64,000 nt of DNA from Pristiophorus japonicus (GCF_044704955.1 NC_091982.1:102734001-102798000), one strand, 5' to 3'. Shown: positions 7,621 to 48,886, counted from the first letter of the stretch. The notes: generated by a model not told the origin, from the sequence alone. Translations and numbers: made by a program.

Positions 7621-9793
7621 TCGATGTTAGCTCACTTTTACGTATCTAAGGAGATCAAGCTGACATGTGATGCCCCTGCAAATGGAATTGGGACAGTGAC
7701 CTCTCCTGTATTACATAGTGGGGAGGAGAGACCAATTACTTTTGCTTCATGTGCCAGTGAGCGTAATTATGCGCAGATTAAAAGGGGTGAAGAAGTTCCA
7801 CAAGTACTTGTATGGTCATCAATTCATCATTGTTACTGACCATAAGTCCTTGACAGGAATCCTCCATCCAAAGTCCCCAGTTCCAATCTTAGCTGCAGCC
7901 CAAATGCAGAGATTGGTTTTGATTTTGTCAGCATATACATATGACATTGAGTACAGATGATCAGCTGATCACAGTAATGCTGATGCTATGTTCAGGTTCC
8001 CATCCCCAGCACAAGTTACACCCAATACGGAAGAAGTGTTCTATTTTTCATACATTGATGGTTTACATCCAACCAAGGGGAAACTGGATGCAAGTCACAG
8101 CTGAACAGATTGGTCGAACAACCAAACCTGACCCAGTTATGTCAAAGGTGTATGATTACATAGCAAATGGTTGGCCAAACCAGGTATCAGAGAAAGATAT
8201 TCATCCATATTTCATTCGTAGGAATGAATTGTCAGTGGATAAAGATTGTATCATGTGGCGTGCAAAATTAGTTATTCCAAATAAGTTCAGGCCCAAATTG
8301 TTAGAAGATCTTCATGACCAGCACGTGGGAATGTGCTTGACCAAGAGTTTTGCATGGAGTTACTTATGGTGGGCAGGCTTAGATAAAGATATAGAGTACA
8401 TCGTTAGTCAGTGTACAACATGTCAATCGGCAAGCAAGAAACCACCATCAGTACCATCGCAGCCATGGAAATGGCCTTCCAGGGTGTGGCAAAGGTTACA
8501 CATAGATTTTACTGAGCTAGAAGGACAACAATTGTTCATTGTGATTGATAGCCATTCAAAATGTGTAGAGGTGTTTCCAATGTGGAAAATAACAACAATT
8601 AAACACTAAATAATTTGCGAAGATTGTTTTCTTCATATGGCCTCCCAGAAGAAATTGTGTCTGATAATGCGCCACAATTTTGTTCAGAAGAATTTGCACA
8701 GTTCATAAGCAGAAACGGTGTGAAACCTACCAAAGTTCCACCATATCATCCTGCTTCAAGTGGTGCAGCAGAGTGCACTGTATAAATTGTAAAATGTGCC
8801 CTCATCAAGCAAATATTGGATCCAATTCCAAAGAAACGACAGTTGTCATTGGATCACAAACAAGCAAATTTTCTAATCACTTATCATAATACTCCTCATA
8901 CTACTGGTAGAACACCAACAGAGATGTTTCTCAAATGACAGCCATGAACTAGGTTCTCATTGCTAAACCCAAACTTGGCACAGTCAGTAGAAGAGAAACA
9001 ATTAAGACACAAAGAGAATCATGACAGAGGTAGAGTAAGAGAGAGAAGTGTGAAATTGAATCAGAAAGTGAAAGTGAAGAACCATCACCATAAATGGTTA
9101 AAGTGGTTACCAGGAAGTGTAGTGAATATATGTGGCCCTCGTACATATTTGGTCAAGATGTTTGATCATAGAAAGGTTATGTTTGTTCACATTGATCATA
9201 TTTTACCTACAGATGTGGAAGGAGTTGAAAGTTGGAATGATTCGATTATTTCTGATGAGTTAAATAGCCTTCTAAAGTAGAGTACCAGTAGCAAACCCTA
9301 CATCAGATGTATTAGAAACAAGTCCAAGAGAAAATCAGAATTTAAGTCTGTGTCTGAGTCAATCTGAAGTTGTAGAGAGTCCAAATGTAAATCAAGAGTT
9401 ACCCTTAGAGGAAAACTCTCCTCAGGCTCTGCCTAGAATGAGTCTAAATTTGATACCATGTTTGGAAGGTTCTGTTCGAGACGAAGGTATCCTCTTCGAA
9501 ACAGAAAACCAGTGGTTAAGTTTAATTTGTAAGTATGGCAAAATAAGTCCATATCTGTTGTTATGTATAACCATGCAAGTTATGTGTGATGATTATTTTG
9601 TTGTGATTACTTCTTCATTAAGGAGGGAGACGTGTAATATAGCTCCATCTAGTGAACTACTGCTCCATCTAGTGGACTACTGTGGTAATGCAAATGCTGA
9701 TATATATAATAAAAGCATCATGTAACAAGTTCACCTGACAAGTTCCTGTTGGAGATATCTTGTAGTGTGTGTTGTTGTAAATAATATATTACA
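7621..9793 (+). mobile_element. Gypsy A, right part (RNaseH, integrase, PPT, 3' LTR)
   Basis: KLTCDA, VTDHKSL, LHDQHVG...CTTCQ, RLHIDF; PPT AAGGAGGGAGA before the LTR. Confidence 0.9.
9633..9793 (+). repeat. 3' LTR of Gypsy A (161 bp)
   Basis: Perfect 9-bp terminal inverted repeat TGTAATATA...TATATTACA, internal AATAAA, follows the PPT. Confidence 0.85.
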
Positions 9794-13563: not shown

Positions 13564-14635
13564 AGAGTCCAACTTTGCCCAACCCCTTTTTTCGGCGCAC
13601 TTACTTTGCACGCTGGAAACGATGCCGGAAAAAAGGGGCCCCATCCTGGCCGCTCTTCCGAGTCCCGGGAGTCCCGGCATGGTATGCATTCTGAAGTGGG
13701 AGTCGGAGCAATAGGCCAGCACCGAAAACAGTGCCGGCACCTGCGCGCATGCGCAGTGAAGTCTGCGCGCATGCTCCTGCCCTCCCAGCGTGTCCTGCAG
13801 GCTGTGAGCAGGACCCGATGCTCGCAGCCCCTTTTCTCAGCTGAAGGGACGCCCCGACCTCGCTGCACCCTATCCCCAGCCGTGTGGCCTCCCGCACCGG
13901 CCGGCCGGCCCGCTAACTTCCCAGGCGAGGTAGGACTTTGGTTTTATTTTTTTATTCATTGGTTGTGCTTGAGAGTTTTGATTGGGGGGGAAGGAGGAGA
14001 GTTTTGGGGTGGGGGGGTAGAGAAAGAGTGTATTGGAGGGGAGAGGAGGAGAGTTTTTTTGGGGGGGAGGAGAAAGAGTGTTTTGTATACCAGCATTTCT
14101 CTCTCTCTCTCTCTCTCTGGCTACCACCGCACCGCCCCCCCTCCCCCCCACTGACATTGCGGCCAGCAACTCGCATTTCTCCCGTCGCTTTATGTAGTGG
14201 CCCCACCCCCCCGGTGACATCGTGATAGGATTTACTTCATTTTTATTCATATTTTAATTGTTTGAGCTTTGCCTTGCAATGTTTGGTGCTTGGTTGTTGA
14301 GGTCCTCTCCAGTTCCCTTCCCTCCCCTAATGTCTGCCGAATGTGCACTGCTTTTTCTTCACTGCCGGCAAGGTTTTCCAAGCTGGCCACATATGCTGAC
14401 CTAAGTGGATTTGGAGTAAGTTTTTGCTGGCCAAAGTGGTATTAATGGCCAAAACTGGCGTAATTGTCTGGAAACGCCCCCTTTTGAAAAAAAAAACTGA
14501 CCTAAAAAGAAAACGTACCTAACTGACCTACTCTGGAGCAAATTTTTGGGGGAAAATGGCATTTTTTAAACTTACGCCAGAAAAAACAACTTACTCCAAA
14601 AATATTGATGCAAGTCATGACCAAAGTTGGGCCCA
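13564..14635. mobile_element. MITE (PIF/Harbinger-type)
   Basis: Imperfect TIR GAGTCCAACTTTG...CAAAGTTGGGCCC, 3-bp TSD TAG/TAG. Confidence 0.75.
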
Positions 14636-25883: not shown

Positions 25884-28044
25884 ATTATTATCCAAGCAGT
25901 ATGTGGCCTCTTCATTTTTCTTACCAAAATGCACCACCTCATACTTATCTACATTAAAATTAATTTGTCATTTACACACCTACTCTGCAAGGTTATTAAA
26001 ACATTTATTTTTATATTTTGTCACAGTCTTGCTCAGTATTAAATACATCCCCCAATTTGGTGTCATCTGCAAAATTTGAAATTATACCTCCAATTCCAGA
26101 GTCCAAATTGTTACTGCAAAAGGTGAACTACAGTGGTTCCAGCTCCAATCCCTATGGAACACCACTTGCCATATCTTTAACTCCTGCTCTCTGTTTTCTG
26201 TTTTATAGCCAGCTTGCTATCCATTCTGCTACTTGCCCCCTGACTCCACGTGCTCTGACCTTCGTCATGAGTCTGCTATGCAATAACTTATCAAAGACCT
26301 TTTGAAAATCCAAGGGGGAGAAATTGGGTTACTTTGTGCCTCCCGTTAGCGACCCCGGGTAACGCAAATATGTTTTCGCCCAGGCGTGGTGAGAACAGCG
26401 CCTCCTGCTAAACTTGCCGGGGGTTTTGCGGCGGCGGTAACACGTAGAGCCCCGCTCGGCTGAGCCCGGTGATGCTGACATCATCACCGTGCGCAGTGCC
26501 ACATTACTGCCCCAGAACAAAAATTAGCCCTCGCCCCTTGGTTTATTGCCTGGCGCTGACAGCGACACCTATAACTGTTGGGTTTCAGTCGGATTTCAGC
26601 TGGAGGAGCGCTATTTAAAGGCTCCAACATCAGGTAAAGTTTTAGTCGGCCAACAAAGTCTGGTCTGTCCGTTATTAGATTTCTGTATTGTTGACTTACC
26701 AGCACATTATTTCCACTGCTGTACACTAAAACCAATCCCTGCAATGATATTACTGTTTTACTTTGTGTCATCGACATTATCTTTCAGAAGCTAAGACAAG
26801 TGATACACAGGAGTGTGTCAATCTTCACAGGGGATCTAATCTCCTGTTCCCTCTCAGTGTCACCTCAGTGGGTGGAACAAGTGTGGTGACACGATGCAGC
26901 TCCTCAGTGGGATCCTGTGACAAATGCTGGGTTTCAGACGGGTATTGAGATGGTCCTGTCACTACTGCCAGCACCTCAGTGCCATTCTGGCCGCTGTTCT
27001 CCACCTGCCTCCTTTGGATGACAGGTGCTATCCTCCACCTTCTTTCAGCCCTCTGAGGGACCATCTGAAAGGTCAAGTACTCATCTGTCTCTTCGCTTGC
27101 CATACCACAGCTGCTGGATACAAATGATCAGGGTGCTTTGGCCATTACTAAAAAGTGCGAAGCCTGCTAACAAGGATCTCTCTTGCAAATCGTCCAGACT
27201 TCATAGACCACTAGTAAAAACCTCCTGTACATTGGACCCTAAGTTAGCAATCGTGGCAGAGACAGTGCTGAGAAGCAAACTACATCGGTGCTTGGGCCTT
27301 CTGCCCTGGAGTTACTACTCGCTCTAGGGTATAATGCAGCTTCACAAACCCTCGGGTAAGCCTACACAGATGACTGAGCATGTTGCATGTTCTGGGCCAT
27401 TCTGTACAGGGAGCTCTGAAGATTCTCAAAGATCTGTACAACGAGATTCCCCGATTCATGATGTAGCTCAGGATGTAGCCCATCTGGCCCTACCCCTCGC
27501 TTCATCCTGTTGCTGCTGTTATGCTGCCAACTCCACTAGTTCCGCCCCGTTGTTGCTTGAATCCTCACCAGATGCTTCCTGCTGATTCTCTTCTATCTGA
27601 TTCGCCCAAGGTGCATGTTTCTGCACTTGCAGACTCTGGAGTGCTTGATGGGTGCTTATGTGATGGGACTGCTTCCTGCTCCTCCCCAATGACAGCACAG
27701 TGGCCTTATCTTGGGAGAGCCCTGCACAAAAAAAAGGGAACACGTTGGCACAGAGGAAGTTGAACTTTGGTTGGCTGGCATGCAGCCACTAAGCTCTCCT
27801 GCACTTACTGTGCAAATTACTTGGAAGGCCCGCTCCTCAAAGTCCCTTGCGGTGACTCAAGTTAAGTGGTCCGCCTTCAGTAGATGTCCTCTGCCGAAGA
27901 TTGTGTGTGACCTTCAAAACAGGACAGGAGATTTTTCATTAGCAATGAAGACTAGTTGCAGACCTATTGCCCTATCCTCATCCCTCCTGCTGTGAAAGGA
28001 ATGGTGACCATGCACATAGGTTTAGGAGCCATAGTGAGTGGGTG

Positions 28045-31000
28045 AACAAAGATATGAAAAGGAGCAGGAGTAGGCCATTTGGCCCCTCAAGCCTGCTCCA
28101 CCATTCAATAAGATCATGGCTGATCTGATCTTGGTCTCAACTCCACATCCCTGCCCGCTCCCCATAACCCTTGACTTCATTATCGTTCAAATGTCTGTCT
28201 ATCTTCACCTTAAATATATTCAATGACCCAGCCTCCACAGCTCACTGGGGTAGAGAATTCCAAATATTCACGACCCTCTGAGAGAAGATATTCCTCCTCA
28301 TCTCCGTTTTAAATGAACAACCCCTTATTCTGAAACGGTGCCCCCTAGTTCTAGATTCCCCCACGAGGGGAAACATTCTCTCTGCATCTACCCTGTCAAG
28401 CCCCCTCAGAATCTTCTACATTTCAATAAGATCACCTCTCATTTTTCTGAACTCCAGTGAGTATAGGCCCAACCTGCTAAAACTTTCTTCATAAGACAAC
28501 CTCATCATCTCAGGAATTAACCTCGTGAACCTTCTCTGAACTGCCTCCAATGCAAGTATATCCCTTCCTATATAAAGAGACCAAAACTGTACACAGTACT
28601 CCAGGTGTGGTCTCACCAATGCCCTGTACAGTTGTAGCAAGACTTCCCTACTTTACACTCCAACCCCTTGCAATAAAGGCCAACATTCCATTTGTCTTCC
28701 TAATTACTTGCTGTACCTGCATACTAACTTTTTGTGTTTCATGTACAAGGACCCCCCAGATCCCTCTATACCTCAGCATTTTGTAATCTCTCCACATTTA
28801 AATAACAATTTGCTATTTTATTTTTCCTACCAAAGTGGATAACCTCACATTTTCCCACATTATACTCCATCTGCTAAATTTTTGTCCACTCACTTAGCCT
28901 GTCTATATCCCTTTGCAGATTCTTTTCATCCTCTTCACAACTTCTTTCCCACCTGCCTTTGTATCATCAGCAAATTTGGCTACATTACATTTGGTCCCTT
29001 CATCCAAGTCATTAATATAAATTGTAAATAGTTGAGGCCCAGCACTGATCCCTGTGGCACACCACTAGTTACAGTTTGTCAACCTGAAAATGACCCATTT
29101 ATCCCGAGTCTCTGTTTTCTGTGAGTTAGCCAATCCTCTAGCCACGCTTATACATTACCTCCAACTCTGAGCTCTTATCTTGTGCAGTAATCTTTTATGT
29201 GGCACCTTATCCAATACCTTCTGGAAATCCAAATACACGGCATCTACTGGTTCCCTTCATCCACCCTGCTTGTTACATCCTCAAAGAACTCCAGCAAATT
29301 TGACAAACATGATTTCCATTTCATAAAACCATACTGACTCAGCTTGACTGTATTATGATTTTCTAAATGTTCTGCTACTACTTCCTTAATAATGGACTCC
29401 AACATTTTCCCAATAACAGATATTATGCTAACTTGTCTAAAGTTTCCTATTTTCTGTCTCCTTGCTTTCTTGAATAGGGGCGTTACATTTTCAGTTTTCC
29501 AATCTGCTGGGAGTTCTCCAGAATCCAGGAACTTTTGGTAAATTACAACCAATGCATTCGCTATCTCTGCAACCACTTCTTTGAAGATCCTAGGATGCAG
29601 GCCATCAGGTCCAGGGGACTTGTCCACCTTTAGTCCCATTAGTTTGCCTAGTATTTTTTCTCTGGTGATAGTGATTGTTTTATGTTCCCCCTCCCAATAG
29701 CCGCTTGATTATCTATTATTATTGGGATGCTTTTAGTGTCTTCTACTGTGAAGATCGATACAAAATATTTGTTCAAATCTCTGCCATTTCCTTGTTTCCC
29801 ATTATTAATTCCCCAGTCTCATCATCTAAGGGACCAACATTTACTTTAGCTACCTTTTTATACGTCTGTAGAAGCTCTGACTGTTTTTACATTTCTTGCT
29901 AGTTTACTCTCATATCTATCTTCTCTCTCTTTATTATTTTTTTAGTTGTCCTTTGCTGGTTTCTACAAATTTCCCAATCCTCTGGCCTACCACTAATCTT
30001 TGCAACATTGTATGCCTTTGTTTTCAATTTGATACTATCCTTAACTTCTTTAGTTAGCCACGGATGGTTCATCCTTCTGTAAGAGTCTTTCTTTCTCACT
30101 GGAATATATCTTTGCTGATAGTTATGAACTATCTCCTTAAATGTATGCCATTGTTTACCTACCATCTAACCCTTTAATCTATTTTCCTAGTCCACTTTAG
30201 CCAACTCTGCATTCATGCCTTTGCAATCACCTTTATTTAAGTTCAGGACCCTAGTTTGAGACCCAACTTTCTCACCCACAAACTGAATTTGAAATTCTAC
30301 CATGCTATCTATGATCCCTAGAGGATCTTTTACGATGAAATCATTAATTAATCCTATCTCATTACACATTACCAGATCTAAAATAGCCTATTCCCTGGCT
30401 GGTTCCACAATGTATTGTTCTAAGAAACCATCCCGAATACACTTTATGAACGTCCTCAAAGGTACCAATTTGTTTTGTCCAATCTATATGAAGATTAAAA
30501 TCGGCCATGATTATTGCAGTATCTTTCTTACAAGCCTCTATTATTTCTTGATTTATACTCTTAGCTGCAATACAGCTTCTGTTAGGGGGCCTATAGACTA
30601 CTCCCACCAGTGACATCTTTCCCTTATTATTTCTTATCTCCACCCAAACTGATTCTACATCTTAATCTTTTGAGCCAATATAATTTCTCATTACTACACT
30701 TTATTAACAGAGCTACCCCACCTCTTTTTCCTTTTTGCCTGTCCTTCCGAAATGTCAAATACCTCTGAATATTCAGTTCCCAGCCTTGGTCACCTTACAC
30801 CCACATCTCTGTCATACCCATTTATTTCTATTTGTGCCATCAACTCATCTATTTTGTTACAACTGCTGCATGCATTCAGATAAATAGCTTTTAATTTTGT
30901 AATTTTACCATTTTTCTCTACTCTGACTCTACTTTCTGATGCACTCTTATATTTATACGCTCTGCCCCTTCCTGTCACTCTCTGGTTATCATTACCCCTA

Positions 31001-34000
31001 TCGCTAACCCCACACTATTGCCTTCTTCTTTCTCTTTGACTTTTTAAATTTCCCCTCATCTGAACCCTCCTGCCCACTATTTAGTTTAAAGCCCTATCTA
31101 CAGATCTAGTTATTCGATTCGCCAGGACACTGGTCCCAGCATGGTTCAAGTGAAGCCCGTCCCAATGGAATAGTTTCCTCCCGCCTTCTCCCGCCACTCT
31201 CCTGCCGCTCTCCCACTGCTGTAAAGCACACACCTTCACAATGTTAAAAACATGTTAAACTCGGTGCAACCTCACATTTACTGTTTAAAAAGACAATTCC
31301 ACAAATCAAAAACAGTCGGTAGCAGTGTGATGTATTTAATTCCTGCATGTATGTATTAGTTTATCTTTATGACTATTGGTGCCAGTGCCCCATGAATCAA
31401 AACCCATTTCTCCCACATCAATCTTTGAGCCACGCATTCATCTCTCTGATCCTATTCACCCTATGCCAGGTGGCTCAGGTCATAATCCAGAGATTATTAC
31501 CTTTGTAGTTCTGCCTTTTAATTTAGTCCCTAGCTGCTCATACTCCCTCAACAGAATCTCTTTTTTTGGCCCAGCTATGTCGTTGGTACCTACGTGGACC
31601 ACGACAATTGGATATTTCCCTGCTCACTCCATGTTCCTCTCCAGTCCAGCGGAGATGTCCTTAACTCTGGTCACTGGACTGGAGAGCGACAACACAGCCT
31701 TCGGGACTCACTTTCTTGGCTGCAGAGAACAGTATCTATCATCCTAACTATACTTGTCCCTACCACTACTACATTTCTTTTTACTCCCCTAACTTGAATG
31801 GCCCCCTGTACCACGGTGATGTGGTCAGTTTGCTCATCCTCCCTGCAGTCGCTACTCTCATCCACACAGGGAGTAAGAGTCTCGTACCTTTGGACAAGAG
31901 CAAGGGCTGAGGCTCCTCCATCACTACATCCTGGGTCCCCATACCTGCCTCGCTCATAGTCATACCCTCCTGTCCCTGGCCACAGACCAAATTTGAAGTA
32001 TTTAACCTAAGGGGTGTGACTGCCTCCTGGAACACAGCGTCCAGATAACTCTCCCCCTCCCTGATGTATCACAGTGTCTGAAGCTCGGACTCCAGCTCAT
32101 CAACTGTGAGCCAAATTCCTCGAGCAGCTGACACTTACTGCAGATGTGGTCACCATGGATCATGCTGATGTCCACCAGCTCCCACATATTGCAGCTGTAA
32201 CACATTGCCTCCCCTGCCATCTATATTGTATTTTATTTAACTAATTAGGTTTTCAAGTTTTGAAATTTCAATTATCTACGTATGGTTTTTAATCTGTAAT
32301 CACAGCTCTTAATTTAAACCAATGCTCAAGTTTAGAAAAAAGAGAGTAATACTCACCAACCAATCACTTACCTGCTTTCCTGTGACATCACACTTTGATT
32401 TTTCCCCCCCCCTCACAATTCCGTTCGCCCTGCTCTCAGTTAGTTGTTTTTGTAGTCCTGGCTACTCCCACTTTCGGCCCATGGTCTCGGCCCAGATCTC
32501 AGCCCCTGGTCTCGGGCCCTGGTCTCGGGCGCTGTTTATATTGTCCTGGCTGTTCCCGCTCTCGGCCCCTAGTCTCGGGCCCTGGTCTCGGGCGCTGTTT
32601 ATATTGTCTCGGTGGCTCACAGTCTCGGGCCCTGATCTCGGGCGCTGTTTATATTGTCTCGGTGGCTCACAGTCTCGGGCCCTGGTCTCGGGCGCTGTTT
32701 ATATTGTCCCAGATGTTTCCGCTCTCAGCCCCTGGTCTTGGCCCCTGGTGTCAGGCACTGTTTATATTGTCCCGGCTGTTCCCGCTCTCGGCCCCTGGTC
32801 TTGGCCCCTGGTGTCAGGCACTGCTTATATTGTCCCGGATGTTCCCGCTCTCGGCCCCTGGTGTCGGGCGCTGTTTATATTGTCCCAGGTGTTCCCGCTC
32901 TCGGCCCCTGGTCTTGGCCCCTGGTCTCGTGCGCTGTTTATATTGTCCCGGCTGTTCCCGCTCTCCGCCCCGAGTCTCGGCCCCTGGTCTCGGCCCCTGG
33001 TCTCGGCTCGGTCTCAGCCCCTGGTCTCGGGCGCTGTTTATATTGTCCCGGCTGTTCCCGCTCTCGGCCCCTGGTCTCGGGCGCTGTTTATATTGTCCCG
33101 GCTGTTCCCGCTTTCAATCCATGGTCTCGGCCCCTGGTCTCGGGCGCTGTTTATATTGTTCCGGCTGTTCTCGCTCTCGGCCCCTAGTCTCGGCCCCTGG
33201 TCTCGGCCCGGTCTCGGCCCCGGTCTCAGCCCCTGGTCTCGGGCGCTGTTTATATTGTCCCGGCTGTTCCCGCTTTCAGTCCATGGTCTCGGCCCCTGGT
33301 CTCGGGAGCTGTTTATATTGTCCCGGCTGTTCTCGCTCTCGGCCCCTAGTCTCGGCCCCTAGTCTCGGCCCCGGTCTCGGCCCCTGGTCTCGGGCGCTGT
33401 TTATGTTGTCCCGGCTGTTCCCACTCTCGGCCCCTGGTCTCGGCCCCTGGTCTCGGGCGCTGTTTATATTGTCCCGGCTGTTCCCGCTCTCGGCCCCTGG
33501 TCTCGGCCCCTGGTCTCGGGCACTGTTTATATTGTCCCGGCTGTTCCCGCTCTCGGCCCCTAGTCTCGGCCTCTGGCCTCGGCCTCTGGTCTCGGCCCCT
33601 GGTCTCGGGCGCTGTTTATATTGTCCCGGCTGTTCCCGCTCTCGGCCCCTGGTCTCGGGTGCTGTTTATATTGTCCCGGCTGTTCCCGCTCTCGGCCCCT
33701 GGTCTCAGCCCCTGGTGTCAGGCACTATTTATATTGTCCCGGCTGTTCCCGCTCTCGGCCCCTGGTCTCGGACCCTGGTGTCAGGCACTGTTTATATTGT
33801 CCCGGATGTTCCAGCTCTCGGCCCCTGGTCTTGGCCCCTGGTGTCGGGCGTTGTTTATATTGTCCCAGGTGTTCCCGGTCTCGGCCCCTAGTCTCGGGCA
33901 CTGTTTATATTGTCCCGGCTGTTCCCGCTTTCAGTCCATGGTTTCGGCCCCTGGTCTCGGGCGCTGTTTATATTGTTCCGGCTGTTCTCGCTCTCGGCCC

Positions 34001-34830
34001 CTAGTCTCGGCCCCTGGTCTCGGCCTGGTCTCGGCCCCGGTCTCAGCCCCTGGTCTCGGGCGCTGTTTATATTGTCCCAGCTGTTCCCGCTTTCAGTCCA
34101 TGGTCTCGGCCCCTGGTCTCGGGAGCTGTTTATATTGTCCCGGCTGTTCTCGCTCTCGGCCCCTAGTCTCGGCCCCTGGTCTCGGCCCCGGTCTCGGCCC
34201 CTGGTCTTGGGCGCTGTTTATGTTGTCCTGGCTGTTCCCACTCTCGGCCCCTGGTCTCGGCCCCTGGTCTCGGGCGCTGTTTATATTGTCCCGGCTGTTC
34301 TCGCTCTCGGCCCCTAGTCTCGGCCCCTGGTCTCGGCCCCTGGTCTCGGCCTCTGGTCTCGGCCCCTGGTCTCGGGCGCTGTTTATATTGTCCCGGCTGT
34401 TCCCGCTCTCGGCCCCTGGTCTCGGCCCCTGGTCTCGGGCGCTGTTTATATTGTCCCGGCTGTTCCCGCTCTCGGGCCCTAGTCTCGGCCCCTGGTCTCG
34501 GCCCCTGGTCTCTGGCGCTGTTTATATTGTCCCGGCTGTTCCCGCTCTCGGGCCCTCATCTCGGCCCCTGGTCTCGGCCCCTGGTCTCGGGCGCTGTTTA
34601 TATTGTCCCGGCTGTTCCCGCTCTCGGCCCCTGGTCTCAGCCCCTGGTCTCGGCCCCTGGTCTCGGGCGCTGTTTATATTGTCCCGGCTGTTCCCGCTCT
34701 CGGCCCTGGTCTCGGCCCCTGGTCTCGGGCGCTGTTTATATTGTCCTGGCTGTTCCCACTCTCGGCCCGGTCTCGCCCCGGTCTCAGCCCCTGGTCTCGA
34801 GCGCTGTTTTTGTAGTTCCGGCTGCTCCCA
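28045..34830 (-). mobile_element. Near full-length CR1 (ORF1 zinc-finger + SGNH esterase, ORF2 APE-RT, 5' tandem array), degenerate
   Basis: ORF1 MAGEAMCYSC...CSKC (ATG 32220), VVVVGTSIVR; ORF2 YLNACS, GVVYRPP, SPGPDGLHPR, LVRPHLEYC; ~190 bp foreign insert at 31181-31373. Confidence 0.92.
32472..34830 (-). repeat. Composite tandem array at the CR1 5' end: 37-bp core + 1-5 copies of a 13-mer, ~33 units
   Basis: Plus-strand core GGGCGCTGTTTATATTGTCCCGGCTGTTCCCGCTCTC, 13-mer GGCCCCTGGTCTC; periods 50/63/76/88/99 bp. Confidence 0.97.
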
Positions 34831-37408
34831 GAAACATGCACATTTCTGTGACTGAAAGAAAGCCTTGGCTTTCCTCTTTTGCTAAATTGGAGTTGCGGCT
34901 TCAATGAGATGGTAGTGAGAGGGTGTTCGATGTGACTGTCTTAGGCCAGTGCTTTGCATAGTTGATTTTGCAGCACTCTGTAGACTGAGTGCTAGGTACA
35001 AGCCTATTAGAGGATTTCCTTTCCTTTAAGTGAATGACATTTATGAAGTTTACTGTTGTACTCTTCCTCAGTCCTGAGACCTTGATTGAATGTTCACTCC
35101 TCCTACAACCTATGGATGGGCGAGGCTGCATTCACTCTGTTCACCATCTCCTGCTATACCTGAGCTTCATCTCATCTAGCCAGACCTCCAGGCTCACCTC
35201 AGTGAAGGGAGCGCTTATTAGAGCTCCCACAGTTGTCATTTTACAAAGCAGTGTTGCAGTCCTTTGAGTGTAGCAGCCCTTTAAGAGTTGCTGCACTTCA
35301 GATGCCTTCCTCCCCTCCCCAGGTGACTCAATACTTCCCTTAAATGTAAAAACTGCACAGAAAACTGAAGCAAATTATTTAAATTAGCTGACTCTACTGA
35401 ATCCGGTGTGGTCAATTGACCAAACAACCTACAGGAGTGAACCACAAGTGTCAGGAGCTCAGGCTGTATTTTAACCTGATTAAGGAATTGGCCCATGTAT
35501 TGTGTACATAGCTTTGCATGATAGTATTCCAAATTTCAGAGGAGGCTCATACCACCGGTGTCTACCTATCAATGAATGCCCGCTGCCTAAGGAGTTGGAT
35601 TCTCTTTAGTTGGCCCATATAGAGTGCTTACCATGCACTTCATGATGTTAGGTTGCTTTTATAAATTTACTTGTGAACACTTTTGTACCTTATCACAGTT
35701 ACACATTCCTACTGATCAGTGCCAAAGACTGATAAGGGAATCCCCACTTCCCAACAAACTAGAGTGTTCAATGTCTAAGTAATTGCAATGAGCCCAGGGG
35801 TCAAACAGAAACCCATGTCACTAAATTTGGCTTGCTGGATAAAACCCATGGCGTCATGCAATCACACTGACTTTGGAAAGCAGTTGGCTAAACACTCTAT
35901 CATATCATGGCTTAGGCTAAAACTACCAAAGAGATTTATTTACAATTAATGGATAGGCACACATAAACATCAGATATACAGAACTTAACCATCCCTCCTG
36001 AGAAGATAAGAAATAATAAACAGTCATGTCTCCCATGTTAAAACTCGTGGGCTAGAAATTCGTCTCGGGCAGTGGTGCAACACAGGCATTATCGGATCGG
36101 CCTCCCGTTATATCCAGTGCCTGATATTCAGCTCCACTGCAGTCAACCCTTCACAGAGCTTCCTGCTTGTCAATCTCTCTCTTGCTCTACTGGCTTCCGA
36201 AGGACTGGTGAACTCAGACAAGTTGTCCTGAGATTTATGTTCCAATTCCTTTGAAATACAACTGGTGAACAAAGGAAATCAAAAATGTATACATATCTCC
36301 GAATTTCTGACAAACATGCGCAGGATGTCATAGATAATGGCTGGGTTTCCCTGTAACTGTCTCCAGGGAGATAACTCAGAAGCCTCTCAATTTCTGGCAG
36401 CGTGCAAACAGCTTACTAGAAATTATGCCAACACACCGAATCAAATATCAGAGCTGGACCTCTACTGAGCTAACAGCTGCTAGAATAATTTAATTGTCAT
36501 CACGTTGTGAGAGCCCCAGTGAAATCAATGAACAAAACAATAAGTTGAACAAGGGTGCAATTTAAGGCATTTACTTATTAATGTCTCCCTGATACCTGTA
36601 ACAGTCATGTCACTTGTTTCCTGAAATGTTGCGTATCAAACAGACGAGTTTATTTTCTTTAGGTGAATCTGGTTTTCACCACAAAGGTACTGTGATGAAA
36701 GGAAAAGGCAACAGAAAACCATACAAAAATGAATGACCATGAAATCCAGTGATTGTTGTCATGTAGACAGAAGCAGCAGCGATTTTGCATCCACAAAGAG
36801 CAACAAGAACAAGGGCCAGTCAAACCTACTCCTGTGGCGTTGGTTGAAGGAGGAGTGTTGACTAGGAAACTGAAACTACTTCCTGCTCCATATGTTGCTA
36901 TGGCCTGTTAACATTGACCTAATTAAAGCATGTAGAACCTTATTTTAAGGCCTTATGTGAGAGACAATAGGGACAATTTTCTTCGGGGGGGAGGCATGGG
37001 TGGGAAGGGGCAGTGGGGACAGCGGGAGCTTTGTACATCCAACAGTTGCAGCATAATTGTGTGAGGCAAGGTGCCCACAATTTTCTTGTCCAGGGCTATG
37101 TGTATCGTCTGGGTGTACTCCCAGGTAGGCTTGGAGCCTGGTGGGGCCTTACACTGGAAATGATGGACAGCAACAGGAGCAGAGCTGAAGGCCTGGATGC
37201 CAGTTGGAGAGCAGCAAAACAGAAAGCCCCAAAGCCAAAGATCATCCTAGGGCAAGTGAAGATCTGAATTCCTGTGCCGATATTCTATCTTTGGGCTTCC
37301 CGGAAGCACTCACAAGTACTCTGTTACAAATAGGGTCCCAATGCATGTCCCAATGTCACGTTTCTTTGGGCTGGGATACATCTTGGTCCAACTACTTATT
37401 ACTAGAGG

Positions 37409-38109: not shown

Positions 38110-41100
38110 TCCTTTCTTACCCAATACTTAAAAAGCCCAACCGGAGAGGAATCACTGCTTGATCTAGTCATGGAACTGAACCAAAGCAGATAAGAATAGG
38201 AGAACATTTTGGCAATAGTGATCACAACATAATAAGGATGAAAATAAAGATTGAGAAAGACATAATTGAGACAAAGACACAGCAATAGATTGTAAAAAAG
38301 CTCATTTTGAGGAGATAAGAATGGTAGCAATGAAGGTAACTATAAAAATAGTTGTTGGGAGACAAGGAGATTGAACAGCAGTAGGAAGAATTAAAAAATG
38401 TGATCAGTACAGTTCAGGAGAAATATATTCCACTAAAAAAACAAGAAAAACTGGCTAATAATGAAATACCATAAATGAATAAATAAATGTAGGTAAAATT
38501 GAAACAAAAAAAAAGGCATCCATTGAGTACATGAGGGTGAAATTGATCGTCCGCCCATTTCTCGGCGGTATGCCAGTGGTATTTCATTTCAGACTGCCAG
38601 GTACCACTGGGGTGGAGTGGGCGTGATTTTTGGCACTTTTTTCTTGGCGGTATCCTGAGCGGAGTACAGCGGGCGGAGCGGTGTGCAGCGGGCGGTGTGC
38701 GGGCGGTGAGTCCCTTACACTCAGAAATCTTCGGGTCCCAAGTTCTGCACACGCGCATGCTGCTGCGAAGCTCCGTCCCCCACCCCGAGAGGCACAGACC
38801 AGAATCCACAGAGACTGCTAGCCTGAGGGCGATGTACAGGTATGTGGGGGGAGGGGGGCGGTGCGGGGTCGCTGCTGTGAGGGGAAATAGCTTCTTGGGG
38901 GGAGATCACTGCTGTGGGGGGGGGGAGATTGCTGCTTGGGGGAAAATTGCTGCTTGAGGGGGAGATCGCTGTAGGGGGGTAACAGATCGCTGTGGGGGAT
39001 GGGGAAAGAGATTGTGGAGTGGGAGAGACAGGATGGGGTGAGATATAAAAAAAAAATTACAGGTAAAGATGCACACCGCTGACTGAAGATCGACTTAAAA
39101 CCACCTTTTCCAGGATGGTCTGCAGGGTTGGTGGTATGTCGATGGTAAGTGATCAATTTGACAATTTTGGGCGGTATGTCGGCGCAGTGCATGGGCGGAC
39201 GGTATGCATACCACCCGGCGGTATGTCGCTGATGAATTTTCCAGCGGGCGGTATGTAGCTATTTTTCAATCAATTTGGCGATTTTGGGCAATATGTCGGC
39301 AGTCCGTGGGTGGTATGTCCACCAATTTCGGGCTACTGGACAATAAAAGAGAGGATGACAAAAGGGAATAAGAAGAGATTAAAAAAGTGGGAAAACATTC
39401 GAAAATCAAAGAAGAGTTATGAAATTAAATTATCAAGGAATTTAAAAATAAGTAGAAAAGTATTCTATAGACACCAGAACAATAAAAGAAAAAAAATCAG
39501 GATAAGAACAGGACTACTAAGGGATATACCATGATAAATTCAAAGGTAATAATAGTACAATGGCAGGCATATTGAATAATACTTTGCCTCAGTATTTACC
39601 AGGGAGACTAATAAGGTGGACAAGATATTAGAATAAGCTATCAAAAAATTATATAAAGACATTTAAAATAGAAAGAGGGAGATAATTGATAACTTAATCA
39701 AGCTTTGAGAGGATAAAACCCCCTGGTCCGGATGGATTGCATCCATGCATTTTAAAAGAATTAGGGAAGAGATACCAGAGGCACTATTATAAATATATAA
39801 AAATTCATTAGGAAAGGGAATAGTGCCAGAGGACTGGCAGGCAACCAATGCTATTCCTATTTTTAAAAAGGGGGATAGACAAGTCCAGGGAATTATAGAC
39901 CAGTTAGTTTAGCATCTATGGTAGGAAAGATAATGGAATCTTTACTCAAAGATGTTAAAGATAAACATCTAGAAAACGAACATTTAATAAAGACGAGTCA
40001 GCACGGATTTCAAAAAGGGAGATTATGCTTGATCAACCTTATTGAATTCTTTGAAGAAGTAGCAGAAAGAGTTAGCAAGGGTAATGTCGTAGATGTATTA
40101 AACTTGGTTTTCAAAAGGCCTTCGATAAGGTACTGCATAGAAGACTCATGGGTGGAGTCAGGAGACAAGTAGCAGACAAAATAGAAAACAGAGATTAGGG
40201 ATTAAGGGTAGCTACTCAGACTGGCAAACGGTAGGAAGCAGTGTTCCACAGGCATCGGTGCTAGGAACACTGTAATTCGCAATTTACATAAACCATTAGG
40301 ACTTGGCAATTGGAAGTACAATTTCAAAATTTGTGTACGACATCAAATTGGGGAATGCAGTTAATACTAAGAAAGCATGCAACAATGTACAAGAAGACAG
40401 TAATAAATTTACAGAATAGACATGTAATTGGAAAATGAATTTCAATATAGATAAGTGTGAGGTGGTGCATTTTGGTAGGAAGAATTGGATAATAAAATCT
40501 AAACGGGGTAGAGGAGCAAAAGAATCTAGGGGTACAGATACACAAACCGCTAGGGACACAGGTTAATGAGGCCATAAAAAAACAAGCACTGGGGTTCATT
40601 TCAAGAGGGATAGAATTGAAAAGCAGAAAAGTTATCTTTAATTTATATAGAACCTTGGTTAGACCACATTTAGAGAACTGTGCACAGTTCTGGTCTCCAT
40701 ATTATAAAAAGGATATAGAGACACGGAGGAAAGTTCAAAAAAGATTAACTAGAATTATATCAGAACTGAGAGGATATACTTATCAGGAAAGCTCTTTTCT
40801 CTAGAGGGGTGACCTGATAGAGATCTTTAAGGTTTTGAAAGGATTTGATAGGGTAGGCATAGAGTTTCCACTGTGGGGAGACCAAAACTCGACTCTATAT
40901 AAGACAGTCCAATAGAGAATTCAGGAGAAACTTTACCCAGAGAGTGGTTAGAATGTGGAACTCGCTACCACAAGGAGTAGCTTTGATTATTTAAGTGGAG
41001 GTTAGATAAGTATATGAGGGAGAAAGGAATAGAAGGAGATTCTGATAGAGTTAGATGAGGAATGGTAGGAGGAAGGTCGCGTGGAGCTTAACCGCTGGCA

Positions 41101-41146: not shown

Positions 41147-42190
41147 GGGCCCGATCTTGACTGGGGCAGATTTTGTAAGCAGCGGGGGCAGGGGGTGGAG
41201 AAGAGTTTTGCCGGGAAACCCTGAAATCCTTTTCTCCCCACCTGGATGTCGGACAGGCTTGGTTCCGTCAGGTGGGGAGCACTCTGGAGGCTGCAGGCAG
41301 GAGCAGGTAAGGAGCCTGCAGCTGGTTTAATGGGAATGTTGGGAGGGGGGGGGTGTCCAGATCTTGTCGGAGGTGGTTGCCAAATCCCAGTGTGGGGGTC
41401 TGATCCCGGGATGCGATGGTCGCTGATCCCAGTGGGGGGGGTGGGGGGGGGGGTCCGATAACAGGCTGGGGTGGTCACCAATCCCGAGGGGGGTGGGGTT
41501 CGATTCCAGGCTGGGGTGGTCACTGATCCCAGTGGAGTGGGGGGGTGGTCCGATCCCGAGGTGGGGTGGTCACCAATCCCGAGGGGGGTGGGGTCCGATC
41601 CCGGGGTGGGGTGGTCGCTGATCCCAGTGGGGGGGGGGGGGTTCCGATCCGGGGTGGGGTGATCACCGATCCCAGTGGGGGTGGGGAGGGGTAGGGGTCT
41701 GATCCTGGGGTGGGGTGGTCACTAATCCCGGGGGTGGAGGGGGGGCGGCAGTACGATCCCAGTGGGGGTGGTCCGATCCCGGGGTGGGAGGGTTCCAATG
41801 GCGGGTAGGGAAGAAGGTAAGCTTGGTGGGGCAGAGGGAAGCATTCCTGCTCCTCACGGCCCACAGCAGAGCTGGAAAGGCACTTACATCTTCCATGAAG
41901 GCATCCTCGCCTCCCTTTAGCTGCCGGGTTTCCCGAACTTGGGAAGTCCGGCCACCCAGGGTAAAACCTGGAAGAAAGGTTAAATCTGAGGCATGCTGCC
42001 TCATCATAATATTTAAATGACCAACCCACCTTCTGGGAGTGGGTGGGTTGCCTGCCCCCTGTCCTGCTTCTGTTCAACAAAAAGTGGATGGGTTGGAGGC
42101 GGAATGTGATCAGGTTTAAGAGTTTTTAAAATTTTTACATCTCACCCGACCCAAACCCACCCATTTATGGGTGTTAAAATTCCCCCCCCC
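41147..42190. mobile_element. MITE with G-rich internal minisatellite
   Basis: GGGCCCGATCTTGAC...GTTAAAATTCCCCCCCCC, exact TSD AAT; repeats of GGGGTGGTCACYGATCCC at 41390-41790. Confidence 0.75.
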
Positions 42191-42240: not shown

Positions 42241-42766
42241 CTCATGGAAACAAAGAAACAAAGAAACAGAAACATAGAAAATAGGTGGAGGAGTAGGCCA
42301 TTCAGCCCTTCGAGCCTGCATCGCCATTCAATAAGATCATGGCTCATCAATCCCTCAGTACCCCTTTCCTGCTTTCTCTCCATAGCCCTTGATCCCTTTA
42401 GCCGTAAGGGCCAATATATCCAATGAACTGGCATCAACAACTCTCTATGGCAGGGAATTCCACAGGTTAACAACTCTGAGTGAAGAAGTTTCTCCTCAGC
42501 TCAGTCCTAAATGGCCTACCCCTTATCCTAAGACTACGGCCCCTGGTTCTGGACTTCCCCAACATCGGGAACATTCTTCCCGCATCTAACCTGCCCAGTC
42601 CCATCAGAATCTTACATGTTTCTATGAGATCCCCTCTCATCCTTCTAAACTCCAGTGAAAAAAGGCCCAGTTGATCCAGTCTCTCCTCATATGACAGTCT
42701 AGCCATCCCTGGAATCAGTCTGGTGAACCTTCGCTGCACTCCCTCAATAGCAAGAACGTCCTTCCT
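42241..42766 (-). mobile_element. 5'-truncated CR1 3' fragment
   Basis: ORF 42467-42739, AAGAAACA tail. Confidence 0.9.
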
Positions 42767-44888
42767 AATGTATATTTCTTAAGGTAAAATGTATTTATTC
42801 ATTGTTTATTGTGGTCTGCTTTCTTTCCAGAACCCTTGGTCCCCTTAGCCATAAGGGCCATATCTAACTCCCTCTTGAATATATGCAATGAACTGGCATC
42901 AACAACTCTCTGCGGCAGGGAATTCCACAGGTTAACAACTCTCTGAGTGAAGAAGTTTCTCCTCATCTCAGTCCTAAATGGCCTACCTCTTATCCTAAGA
43001 CTGTGTCCCCTGGTTCTGGACATCCCCAACATCGGAAACATTCTATCCACATCTAACCTGTCCAGTCCCGTCAGAATTTTATATGTTTCTATGAGATCCC
43101 CTCGCATCCTTCTAAACTCCAATGTATAAAGTCCCAGTTGATCCAGTCTCTCCTCCTATGTCAGTCCTGCCATCCCAGGAATCAGTCTGGTGAACCTTCG
43201 CTGCACTCCCTCAATAGCAAAAACGTTCTTCCTCAGATTAGGAGACCAAAACTGAACACAATATTCCAGGTGAGGCCTCACCAAGGCCCTGTACAACTGC
43301 AGTAAGACCTCCCTGCTCCTATACTCAAATCCCCTAGCTATGAAGGCCAACATACCATTTGCCTTCTTCACCGCCTGCTGTACCTGTATGCCGACTGATG
43401 AACCATGACACCCAGGTCTCATTGCACCTCCTCTTTTCCTAATCTGCCGCCATTCACATAATATTCTGTCTTCGCATTTTTGCCACCAAAGTGGATAACC
43501 TCACATTTATCCACATTATACTGCATCTGCCATGCATTTGCCCACTCACCTAACCTGTCCAAGTCACCCTGCAGCCTCCTAGCGTCCCCCTCACAGCTCA
43601 CACTGCCACCCAGTTTAGTGTCATCTGCAAACTTGGAGATATTACACTCAATTCTTACATCCAAATCATTGATGTATATTGTAAAGAGCTGGGGTCCCAG
43701 TACTGAGCCTTGCGGCACTCCACTCGTCACTGCCTGCCATTCTGAAAAGGACCCGTTTATCCCGACTCTCTGCTTCCTGTCTGCCAACCAGTTCCCTATC
43801 CACGTCAGTATATTACCCCCAATACCATGTGCTTTGATTTTGCACACCAATCTCTTTTGTGGGACCTTGTCAAAAGCCTTTTGAAAGTCCAAATACACCA
43901 CGTCCACTGGTTCTCCCTTGTTCACTCGACTAGTTACATCCTCAAAAAATTCCAGAAGATTTGTCAAGCATGATTTCCCCTTCATAAATCCATGCTGACT
44001 TGGACCGATCCTGTCACTGCTTTCCAAATGCGCTGCTATTTCATCCTTAATAATTGATTCCAACATTTTCCCCACTACTGATGTCAGGCTAACCGGTCTA
44101 TAATTACCCGTTTTTTCTCTCCCTCCTTTTTAAAAAAATGGTGTTACATTAGCTACCCTCCAGTCCATAGGAATTGATCCAGAATAGATAGATTGTTGGA
44201 AAATGATCACCAATGCATCCACTATTTCTAGGGCCACTTCCTTAAGTACTCTGGGATGCAGACTATCAGGCCCCGGGGATTTATCGGCCTTCAATCCCAT
44301 CAATTTCCCTTACACAATTTCCCGCCTAATAAGGATATCCTCAGTTCCTTCTTCTCACTAGACCCTCTGTCCCCAAGTACTACCGGAAGGTTATTTGTGT
44401 CTTCCTTCGCGAAGACAGAACCAAAGTATTTGTTCAATTGTTCTGCCATTTCTTTGTTCCCCATTATAAATTCACTTGAATCCAACTGCAAAAGACTTAT
44501 GTTTGTCTTCACCAATCTTTTTCTCTTCACATATCTATAGAAGCTTTTGCAGTCAGTTTTTCTGTTCCCGGCAAGCTTCTTCTCGTACTCTATTTTCCCC
44601 TTCTTAATTAAACCCTTTGTCCTCCTCTGCTGAATTATAAATTTCTCCCAGTCCCCAGGTTTGTTGTTTTTTCTGGCCAATTTATCTGCCTCTTCCTTGG
44701 ATTTAACACTATCCTTAATTTTCCTTGTTAGCCACAGTTGAGCCACCTGCCCCATTTTATTTTTACTCCAGACAGGGATGTACAATTGATGAAGTTCATC
44801 CATGTGATCTTTAAATGCTTGCCATTGCCTATCCACCGTCAACCCTTTAAGTATTATTTGCCAGTGTATTCTAGCTAAATCACGCCTC

Positions 44889-46412
44889 AGAGTACGTAAG
44901 GAGGTGGCCTTGGAAATAGCGGATGCATTACAGTCATTTTCCAATATTCCATAGACTCTGGATCAGTTGCTATGGAGTGGAGGGTAGCCAATGTAACCCC
45001 ACTTTTTAAAAAAGGAGGGAGAGAGAAAACAGGGAATCATAGACTGGTCAGTCTGACATTGGTAGTGGGTAAAATGATAGAATCAATTATTAAGGATGTC
45101 ATAGCAGCGCATTTGGAAAGAGGTGACATGATAGGTCAAGTCAGCATGGATTTGTGAAAGGGAAATCATGCTTGACAAATCTTCTGGAATTTTTTGAGGA
45201 TGTTTCCAGTAGAGTGGACAAAGGAGAACCAGTTGATGTGGTGTATTTGGACTTTCAGAAGGCTTTCGACAAGGTCCCACACAAGAGATTAATGTGCAAT
45301 GTTAAAGCACATGGGATTGGGGGTAGTGTGCTGACATGGATTGAGAACTGGTTGGCAGACAGGACGCAAAGAGTAGGAGTAAATGGGTACTTTTCAGAAT
45401 GGCAGGCAGTGACTAGTGGGGTACCGCAAAGTTCTGTGCTGGGGCCCCAGCTGTTTACATTGTACATTAATGATTTAGATGAGGGAATTAAATGTAGTAT
45501 CTCCAAATTTGTGGATGACACTAAGTTGGGTGGCAGTGTGAGCTGCGAGGAGGATGCAATGAGGCTGCAGAGTGACTTGGAAAGGTTAGGTGAGTGGGCA
45601 AATGCATGGCAGATGAAGTATAATGTGGATAAATGTGAGGTTATCCACTTTGGTGGTAAAAACAAAGAGACAGACTATTATCTGAATGGTGAAAGATTAG
45701 GAAAAGGGGAGGTGCAACGAGACCTGGGTGTCATGGTACATCAGTCATTGAAGGTTGGCATGCAGGTACAGCAGGTGGTTAAGAAAGCAAATGGCATGTT
45801 GGCCTTCATAGCGAGGGGATTTGAGTACAGGGGCAGGGAGGTGTTACTACAGTTGTACAGGGCCTTGGTGAGGCCACACCTGGATTATTGTGTACAGTTT
45901 TGGTCTCCTAACTTGAGGAAGGACATTCTTGCGATTGAGGGAGTGCAGCGAAGGTTCACCAGACTGATTCCCCATGGCGGGACTGACATTTCAAGAAAGA
46001 CTGGATCAACTGGGCTTGTATTCACTGGAGTTCAGAAGAATGAGAGGGGATCTCATAGAAATGTTTAAAATTCTGACGGGTTTAGACAGGAAGAATGTTC
46101 CCAATGTCGGGGAAGTCCAGAACCAGGGGACACAGTCTAAGGATAAGGGGTAAGCCATTTAGGACCGAGATGAGGAGACTGGTGGACCTGTGGAATTCTC
46201 TACCACAGAAAGTTGTTGAGGCCAATTCACTAAATATATTCAAAAATGAGTTAGATGTAGTCCTTACTACTAGGGGGATGAAGGGGTATGGCGAGAAAGC
46301 AGGAATGGGGTACAGAAGTTGCATGTTCAGCCATGAACTCATTGAATGGCGGTGCAGGCTCGAAGGGCCGAATGGCCTACTCCTGCACCTATTTTCCATG
46401 TTTCTATGTTTC
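44889..46412 (+). mobile_element. 5'-truncated CR1 inserted antisense in a closely related CR1
   Basis: ORF 45154-46068 RT; ends in TTTCTATGTTTC tail; host sequence resumes at 46413. Confidence 0.92.
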
Positions 46413-48435
46413 AAATGATCAAAGTTACCTTTCCTTAAGTTCAGGACCCTAGTTTCTGAATTAACTGTGTCACTCTCCATCTTAATAAAGAATTCTACCA
46501 TGTTATGGTCACTCTTCCCCAAGGGGCCCCACATAACAAGATTACTAATTAGTCCTTTCTCATTACACATCACCCAGACTAGGATGACCAGCTCCCTAGT
46601 TGGTTCCTCGACATATTGGTCTGGAAAACCATCCCTAATACACTCCAGGAAATCCTCCTCCACTGCATTGCTACCAATTTGGTTAGCCCAATCAATATGT
46701 AGATTAAAGTCACCCATGATAACTGCTGTACCTTTATTGCATGCATCCCTAATTTCTTGTTTAATGCTGTCCCCAACCTTACTACTACTGTTTGGTGGTC
46801 TGTACACAACTCCCACTAGCGTTTTCTGGCCCTTGGTATTCCGTAGCTCCACCCATTCCAATTCCACATCATCCAAGCTAATGTCCTTTCTTACGAGTGC
46901 ATTAATTTCCTCTTTAACCAGCAATACCACCCCGCCTCCTTTTCCTTTCCGTCTATCCTTTCTAAATGTTGAATACCCCTTGATGTTGAGTTCCAAGCCT
47001 TGCTCACCCTCGAGCCATGTCTCCGTGAAGCCAATTACATCATACCCATTAACTGCTATCTGCGCAGTTAATTCGTCCACCTTATTCCGAATTCTCCTCG
47101 CATTGAGGCACAGAGCCTTCAGGCTTGTCTTTCTAACACACTTTGCCCCTTTAGAATTTTGGTGTAAAGTGGCCGTTTTTGCTTTTTGCCTTAGGTTTCT
47201 TTGCCCTCCACTTTTACTTTTCCTCTTTCTATCTTTTGCTTCTGCCCCCATTCTACTTCCACCTGTCTCCCTGCATCGGTTCCCATCCGCCTGCCATATT
47301 ATTTTAACTCCTCCCCAACAGCACTAGCAAACACTCCCCCTAGGACATTGGTTCCGGTCCTGCACAGGTGCAGACCTTCCGGTTTGTACTGGTCCCACTT
47401 CCCCCAGAACTGCTTCCAATGTCCCAGGAATTTGAATCCCTCCCTTCTGCACCACTCCTCAAGCCACTTATTCATCTGAGCTATCCTGCGATTCCTACTC
47501 AGACTAGCACGTGGCACTGGTAGCAATCCTGAGATTACTACTTTTGAGGTCCTACTTTTTAATTTAGCTCCTAGCTCCCTAAATTTGTCTCGTAGGACCA
47601 AATCCCGTTTTTTACCTATATCGTTGGTACCTATATGCACCACGACAACTGGCTGTTCACCCTCCCTTTTCAGAATGTCCTGCACCCACTCCGAGACATC
47701 TTTGACCCTTGCACCAGGGAGGCAACATACCATCCTGGAGTCTCAGTTGCGGCCACAGAAACTTCTATCTATTCCCCTTACAATGAATCCCCTATCACTA
47801 TAGCTCTCCCACTCTTTTTCCTGCCCTCCTGTGCAGCAGAGCCACCCACAGTGCTATGTTACTTGGCTGCTGCTGCCCTCCCCTGATGAGTCATCCCCCT
47901 CAACAGTATCCAAAGCGGTGTATCTGTTTTGCAGGGGGATGACTGCAGGGGACCCCTGCACTACCTTCCTTGCACTGCTCTTCCTGTTGGTCATCCATTC
48001 CCTATCTGGCTGTGTACCCTTTGCCTGCGTTATGACCAACTCACTAAATGTACTATTCACGTCATTCTCAGCATTGTGCATGCTACAGAGTGAATCCACC
48101 CGCAGCTCCAGTTCCGCAATGCGGTCGGTCAGGAGCTGCAGGCGGATACACTTCCCGCATACTTGGTCGGCAGGGACACCGGAAGCGTCCCTGACTTCCC
48201 ACATAGTACAGGAGGAGGATAACACGTGTCCGAGCTGCCCTGCCATGACTCAACCCCTAGATAAACTTAAATTGGCAACAACACTGCTAAATGTTAGTTA
48301 CTGATATAGAAAAGAAAAAGAAAAACTACTTACCAATCACCAGCCAATCACTTACCGCCTTGGCTGTGACGTCACCTTTCGATTTCTTTCTACTTCTTTT
48401 TTGCCTCCCTGCTGCAGCTGCACCAGCTGGCCTTT

Positions 48436-48886
48436 CCGACTCCCTGCTGGGCCTCCCGGCTCGACACTGGCCTTCATAGGCCTCCTGACGACGCTGCTGC
48501 TCTGCCTCTCCGACTCCCTGCTGGGCCTCCCGGCTCGACACTGGCCTTCATAGGCCTCCCGACGACGCTGCTGCTCTGCCTCTCCGACTCCCTGCTGGGC
48601 CTCCTGGCTCGACACTGGCCTTCATAGGCCTCCTGATGACGCTGCTGCTCTGCCTCTCCGACTCCCTGCTGGGCCTCCTGGCTCGACACTGGCCTTCATA
48701 GGCCTCCTGACGACGCTGCTGCTCTGCCTCTCCGACTCCCTGCTGGGCCTCCCGGCTCGACGTTGGCCTTCATAGGCCTCCTGACGACGCTGCTGCTCTG
48801 CCTCTCCGACTCCCTGCTGGGCCTCCCGGCTCGACGCTGGCCTTCATAGGCTTCCCGACGACGCTGCCGCTCTGCCTCTCTGACTC
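48436..48886 (-). repeat. Tandem array of six 74-bp monomers at the CR1 5' end
   Basis: Units start 48436, 48510, 48584, 48658, 48732, 48806 (CCGACTCCCTGCTGGGCCTCC...TGCTCTGCCTCT). Confidence 0.96.

Follow-up and report, generated by a model that had tools for sequence, protein, structure and literature searches.

The stretch of DNA analysed here (the window; 64,000 nt of Pristiophorus japonicus, GCF_044704955.1 NC_091982.1:102734001-102798000) contains a GC-rich tandem repeat on the minus strand, extending from 34830 to 32442, that adjoins the 5′ end of a long interspersed nuclear element (LINE) of the CR1 type. Tandem Repeats Finder (TRF) reported overlapping periods of 13, 50, 63, and 76 bp across 32476-34830, and parsing on the minus strand divided the array into 35 units, consisting of 33 interior units (50-102 bp), each with a constant head followed by one to five copies of a GC-rich 13-mer, and two divergent terminal units. 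A first-pass annotation of this DNA had described about 33 TATA-bearing tandem monomers upstream of a CR1, with TATAAA in nearly every unit and in a CpG-rich context, and the array is confirmed on both counts, with TATAAA present 30 times (units 1, 9, 21, 29, and 35 do not have it) and a CpG observed/expected ratio of 0.78. The GC content of the array is 64%, while the body of the element has a GC content of 41% and a CpG observed/expected ratio of 0.28. The same annotation placed the array at 32340..34830, directly upstream of the first open reading frame (ORF1); the upstream position stands, but the array ends 250 nt before the ATG and the interval 32340-32441 is unique 5′ untranslated region (UTR) and tether, the short stretch between the array and the family-wide UTR. 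There are 17 G-quadruplex (G4)-type patterns on the sense strand of the array and ~0.2 per kb elsewhere. Neither the monomer (outside of the array) nor the tether has a further match in the window. A coding role for the open frames on the plus strand of the array was rejected, as their 1 and 9 protein matches were all to unrelated low-complexity repeats, and an Rfam search returned two chance matches only (E 0.3 and 0.62).

Judged from its sequence, the element bearing the array is a structurally full-length, dead chondrichthyan CR1, because its ORF1 matches esterase proteins, its reading frames are broken, and canonical vertebrate CR1s are described as having an esterase ORF1 and chondrichthyan L2 elements as being without ORF1 (PMC13343379). 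The assignment is based on the similarity of ORF1 and ORF2 and on the 3′ end. The near full-length CR1 of the earlier description is full-length in outline, but is no longer intact. ORF1 (ATG at 32220) encodes a zinc finger and an SGNH esterase and is 56-70% identical, in six pieces, to P0027, a PF13472 protein within the chondrichthyan CR1 ORF1 protein set, and has been damaged by five stops, four frame changes, and a ~190-bp insertion. Taken by itself, a stop-free stretch of 47 aa matches PF13472 weakly (E 0.037, below the cut-off). Of the 43 proteins retrieved with the esterase part of a neighbouring CR1 as query, nearly all have SGNH/GDSL domains, and the named best matches are from sharks and rays. 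In tblastn, ORF2 matches neighbouring elements in both their endonuclease and their reverse transcriptase (RT) parts; its partial match to RVT_1 (E 8.9e-05) falls below the cut-off because the domain is free of stops at its start only, and its reading frame is wrecked by many stops and frameshifts. The element closes with a CR1-type 3′ end at about 28076-28044; a 17-nt 3′ word followed by a short-repeat tail was found in eight of nine window matches (the remaining match is not a tail), and the tail is degenerate in this copy. The ~190-bp insertion lies in the esterase part of ORF1 (about 31180-31375) and has no other match in the window. As a separate observation, P0007, labelled as a Pseudomonas aeruginosa SGNH hydrolase and located on a 4-kb contig, shares 68% identity with the esterase of shark CR1 ORF1 and likely represents contamination with host DNA.

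Based on its orientation, its position, a candidate target-site duplication (TSD), and the like construction of a second CR1 in the window (see below), the array is probably the element's own 5′ monomer region and would have arrived with the insertion, which apparently starts at the first base of a unit. The candidate TSD is the 9-bp word ATGTGCATG, with one copy 4 nt ahead of unit 1 and the other 26 nt past the apparent tail, and a match of at least nine to the 5′ flank occurred in 5 of 2539 control windows. The array could instead be an unrelated host minisatellite, next to which a CR1 5′-truncated at about 32400 landed, or which was captured once by template switch or 5′ transduction. Such an origin would agree with the sharp end of the family homology at about 32403, beyond which other copies continue differently, with the lack of any other monomer or tether match in the window, and with the atypical form of the candidate TSD, but it is unlikely given that an array occupies the corresponding place in the second CR1, that the array grades into the tether via unit 35, and that the 9-bp word outside of the array is rare by chance.

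The second CR1 (ORF1 48246-47302) has a GC-rich 5′ array of 6.2 units of 74 bp, unrelated in sequence to the first array, with a monomer that reads TATGAA in six of six units and has no TATA. The ORF1 protein of this element is only 39% identical to P0027, a close relative of the ORF1 protein of the first CR1. Two 5′ ends of ORF1-bearing CR1s were identified in the window, and both (2/2) have a tandem array just upstream of a shared motif, GTGAYGTCACAG-N7-GGTAAGTGATTGG. The two parts of the motif are at a fixed spacing; the motif occurs at two window sites only, each just downstream of a CR1 5′ array, and in both families a further splice-donor-like site and a run of pyrimidines come after it. 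We take the words within this motif to be a CRE (cAMP response element)-like site, a reversed CCAAT, and two splice-donor-like sites. Across all four of the sequencing runs compared (see below), the shared motif has the highest contig cover of the UTR. Because a second, divergent CR1 has an unrelated array at the same place, the comparison suggests that 5′ monomers recur among shark CR1 families, and the shared motif may be a constant promoter or RNA-processing core to which the monomers are replaceable add-ons, making it a candidate, in shark CR1s, for the core promoter or for an element that binds U1.

Beyond the window, exact scans for the UTR motif in metagenome contigs and for a 19-nt monomer word in viral contigs had no match. 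Scans with an ORF1 profile identified 54 metagenome loci, 0 viral loci, and 6 GTDB loci, all at about 22-53% identity, and TRF detected no tandem array of at least 60 bp in the 33 of these 60 loci that were CR1-like and had upstream DNA, a result of little weight for distant old copies in other hosts. Of 134 joints, the 15 that were listed included none spliced from the donor-like site. Two further observations concern the second CR1. It is less decayed than the first, with array units that differ mostly at CpG-type sites and an array that begins inside a unit. A plus-strand CR1 (about 44990-46420) interrupts the minus-strand element, such that nested CR1 pieces extend over 42270-48886.

Other copies of the family were explored using contigs from four of 15 listed sequencing runs (X2, X9, X10, and X13), compared with 31420-32640 at 80% likeness and with contig depth treated as a hint and not as a copy number. 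ORF1 and the UTR were heavily covered up to 32403 in all four runs. In run X2, summed depth fell from 10,000-70,000 over the UTR to 78 in the adjoining bin and stood at 200-630 over the monomer (single listed contigs, depth 6-14). In run X10, 117 contigs with loose ends leave at 32400 for other sequence, and listed contigs from organism A (X2 record 24 and X13 record 15) extend 94 and 136 letters past 32401 without fitting. Of the 13635 same-label contigs on the element, 10975 are <95% alike, as would fit an old element body. The monomer itself was present in tandem in run X2, in a contig turning back from 32568 to 32490, and another contig from this run (depth 167 of 803) lacks 3 nt inside TATAAA (32537), a variant absent from the array in the window that may mark another locus or allele. 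Holes in the monomer cover (runs X9, X10, and X13; X2 at 32445-32485) were not counted as evidence. As the contigs diverge at about 32400 and the monomer cover is far below the UTR cover, most copies would appear to have other 5′ sequence, and the evidence leans towards a monomer that belongs to this locus or to a small subfamily. The first-pass annotation had asked whether the monomer is always 5′-adjacent to copies of this CR1 ORF1, and the contigs of other copies, which differ upstream of about 32400, lean against a family-wide monomer.

The units of the array carry the marks of recent turnover in the interior and of greater age at the ends. Divergence from the consensus across the initial 43 nt is 4.1% for 31 of the 33 interior units (units 32 and 33 were left out as locally divergent), and the pairwise difference amongst units 2-31 is 7.5%. 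A block of 503 bp recurs at a distance of 817 bp with 96.8% identity and no gaps; the duplicated blocks differ by 16 substitutions, 13 of which are transitions, and an assembly artefact was on that basis judged unlikely. Units 9-12 recur as units 21-24, with equal lengths and private variants common to both, units 14-16 recur as units 28-30, and one duplicated unit was already TATA-less before copying. Between units 1 and 35 there are 5 differences in 29 sites, and both units depart in the same way from the interior consensus at five positions, three of which fall in the TATA word (ACTACAAAAACA vs ACAATATAAACA). Older ends around a homogenised core are the edge pattern expected of array turnover by slippage and unequal exchange. 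Variation at CpG positions is ~three times as frequent as at other positions (28/264 vs 42/1155), which fits some methylation-driven decay and not a fully protected island. The G4-type patterns are a possible cause of instability in the array. Other short G-rich tandem arrays occur at 41395-41686, 38872-38962, and 13971-14085, and G-run minisatellites thus appear to be common in this DNA.

Since the young, homogenised interior and the older end units lie beside a frameshifted body, the array would have grown locally after insertion, and the explanation that we favour, at a probability of about 0.55, is that a CR1 5′ monomer module has overgrown locally into a minisatellite on a dead element. 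The CR1 would have inserted carrying a short, promoter-type 5′ monomer module, which minisatellite-style slippage and unequal exchange would then have lengthened, with a TATAAA-bearing variant spreading between two older, TATA-less end units and the instability of G runs perhaps helping growth. By analogy with mouse L1, the monomers may serve, or may have served, as CpG-rich internal promoter or enhancer units, in which case the constant cis element would be the downstream CRE/CCAAT/donor-like motif and the monomers would be swappable. A long array could also have been inherited as is from the master of a rare CR1 subfamily, with TATA-independent, mouse-L1-like monomers of two types (terminal and interior). 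In its favour, the candidate TSD encloses the entire array, the monomer occurs in tandem in contigs of organism A, including the variant absent here, such that other loci or alleles may exist, and mouse monomer subtypes are reported to show position preference (PMC6454616). This inheritance is nonetheless improbable, as the gap-free block duplication and the 4% divergence amongst units contrast with the frameshifted body, and the cover of the monomer is far below that of the UTR within the same run.

The first-pass annotation had further proposed that TATAAA is the working part of a promoter that renews itself by relay, with each TATAAA starting a transcript ~30 nt downstream in which the downstream units are retained, thereby renewing the promoter of the CR1 subfamily. 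Several features are compatible with this, including the 30 of 35 units with TATAAA on the sense strand in a CpG-rich context, the six interior units (all of 50 bp) in which the first T lies 32 nt before the next unit start, the beginning of the insertion at a unit start, and the precedent of upstream-copy promoters in HeT-A and Penelope (PMC2377424). However, where a relay would place an ordinary, TATA-bearing interior unit at the 5′ end, unit 1 is TATA-less and of the terminal type. In the other 27 of the 33 interior units, the distance from the TATA to the beginning of the next unit is 44-84 nt, which would place transcript starts within the 13-mers. Further, a canonical TATA is not conserved between monomer types or families: TATAAAC is the reading at 29 of the 30 array sites and only one fits TATAWAW, the monomer of the second family has TATGAA and no TATA in 6/6 units, and a run X2 contig has lost 3 nt of TATAAA. 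Other copies also have different upstream sequence. The label TATA is not unique, since the same bases can be read as a forkhead word, RYAAAYA (32 matches), beside ACAAT. A self-renewing relay is consequently not supported and is unlikely, and the TATA-like word is likely a passenger of array growth. A modular shark CR1 promoter, with a deeply conserved internal core (CRE-like, reversed CCAAT, and twin donor-like sites) and swappable GC-rich monomers, in which one subfamily gained a TATA and relays, would likewise have a low probability.

A number of points weigh against the local overgrowth of a 5′ monomer module on a dead element. The candidate TSD was found post hoc, is longer than the 3-5 bp at which TSDs of the L2/CR1 clade peak (PMC4245944), and has an unexplained 26-nt spacer, though extra bases at the 5′ junction are described as common in a zebrafish L2 (PMC4245944); no TSD was found when one was looked for at the second CR1. 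Of about 27,000 pieces in the contig comparison 32 were listed, as were 24 of the 1944 loose ends; organism A (run X2, the best match) has only 0.37 of the words and may not be the species of the window. Amongst these contigs, no second copy with this monomer joined to the CR1 UTR was seen, so that descent from a master element is conjectural. Homogenisation through gene conversion could also give an older array a young appearance. Lastly, the first base of the array is also the first base of a unit and would lie 32-33 nt from the TATA position of a 50-bp upstream unit, a marginal fit to a relay.

The coordinates of the array, its host element, and the second CR1 are collected in Table 1. Elsewhere in the window, broken Ty3/gypsy-like gag-pol frames occur on the plus strand at 2735-5333 and 7923-8609, as judged by eye from translations.

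Table 1. Features of the array-bearing CR1 and of the second CR1 5′ end, with positions counted from the first letter of the window.
Feature	Position	Strand	Basis or remark
Candidate TSD ATGTGCATG, 5′ copy	34835..34843	-	4 nt before unit 1
5′-terminal unit 1, TATA-less type (ACTACAAAAACA)	34759..34830	-	Insertion likely begins here
33 interior monomers, 50-102 bp, head with ACAATATAAACA and 1-5 GC-rich 13-mers	32471..34758	-	TRF and parsing; includes block duplications (units 9-12 = 21-24, 14-16 = 28-30)
3′-terminal unit 35, TATA-less type as in unit 1	32442..32470	-	24/29 identical to unit 1; both depart from the interior consensus at 5 positions
Tether from array to family-wide UTR, G run at its end	32404..32441	-	38 nt; other copies diverge upstream of about 32400
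Shared motif GTGAYGTCACAG-N7-GGTAAGTGATTGG, first CR1	32360..32391	-	Top contig cover of the UTR
Proximal AT-rich 5′ UTR	32221..32359	-	Sequence and contig comparison
ORF1 (zinc finger and SGNH esterase), broken	31084..32220	-	5 stops, 4 frame changes, ~190-bp insertion at about 31180-31375
ORF2 (endonuclease and RT), broken	28137..30900	-	Approximate limits
CR1 3′ UTR and degenerate tail	28044..28136	-	3′ end comparison
Candidate TSD, 3′ copy	28009..28017	-	26 nt past apparent tail
74-bp x 6.2 GC-rich array (TATGAA), 5′ end of second CR1 family	48430..48886	-	TRF
Shared motif, second CR1 (ORF1 48246-47302)	48344..48375	-	Sequence comparison

Amongst known systems, the comparison with the monomers of mouse L1 that had been drawn at the outset is the right one, with an array at the 5′ end and a tether to ORF1. 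Mouse and rat L1 possess monomer arrays with a ~250-bp tether to ORF1 (PMC5381506), mouse L1 monomers are reported to have internal starts, and one mouse L1 promoter of 50 monomers has been ascribed to unequal crossing-over (PMC6454616). Like L1Md A, Gf, and Tf, the array has tandem CpG-rich 5′ units, a ~250-bp unique stretch to ORF1, and a variable number of units, and, like the 50-monomer outlier, it is very long, with growth ascribed to unequal exchange. Unlike mouse L1, it belongs to the CR1 clade, its units are of 50-102 bp with an internal 13-bp variable repeat as opposed to ~200 bp, and no YY1 word was found when looked for in the monomer. The layout of the mouse L1 type is present in the tandem 5′ units and the tether to ORF1 and, weakly, in the candidate TSD that encloses the array; the array is built like a mouse-L1 monomeric 5′ end and is at most a putative working promoter of its family.

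Within the CR1 group, species-specific 5′ tandem repeats of one to five units of 100-500 bp have been described in LINEs that lack ORF1 (Stuart et al. 2026, PMC13343379), where the words ‘promoter’ and ‘monomer’ do not occur in the main text. Those elements share with the present ones tandem repeats near the 5′ UTR of CR1-group LINEs, but here the arrays belong to two canonical CR1s with an esterase ORF1 and have 35 units (50-102 bp) and 6 units (74 bp). The likeness to the upstream-copy promoters of Drosophila HeT-A and of the Penelope pseudo-LTRs (LTR, long terminal repeat), an upstream repeat driving a downstream copy (PMC2377424), is one of idea only. In those systems the repeat is the 3′ end of an element copy arranged in tandem, whereas here there is a 5′ minisatellite with a terminal unit that does not support the relay. 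The amplification of tandem arrays from the non-coding parts of transposons has been reviewed (PMC9659126), and as an array from a non-coding element part the present case resembles these transposon-UTR minisatellites and satellites; a CR1 case in that review, chicken HinfI, derives from ORF2/3′ UTR, unlike the 5′ monomer here. The literature searched yielded no report of a CR1 with an ORF1 and a monomer array that bears TATA or has been tested as a promoter, while Repbase entries, subscription papers, and supplements, which were outside of that search, may describe such 5′ ends.

Elements of the CR1 group are reported to account for 22-34% of elasmobranch genomes (PMC13343379), and while CR1 elements fill much of shark genomes, CR1 promoters have barely been described. 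For the array in the window, the most likely event is that a repeat grew locally on a dead element, and events of this kind are known. If 5′ monomer arrays were general in esterase-type CR1s, the promoter design of mouse L1 would have arisen independently in a second LINE clade and the 5′ ends of CR1s would be a standing source of CpG-rich minisatellites. The motif common to two distant families offers a concrete target for finding the real CR1 promoter.

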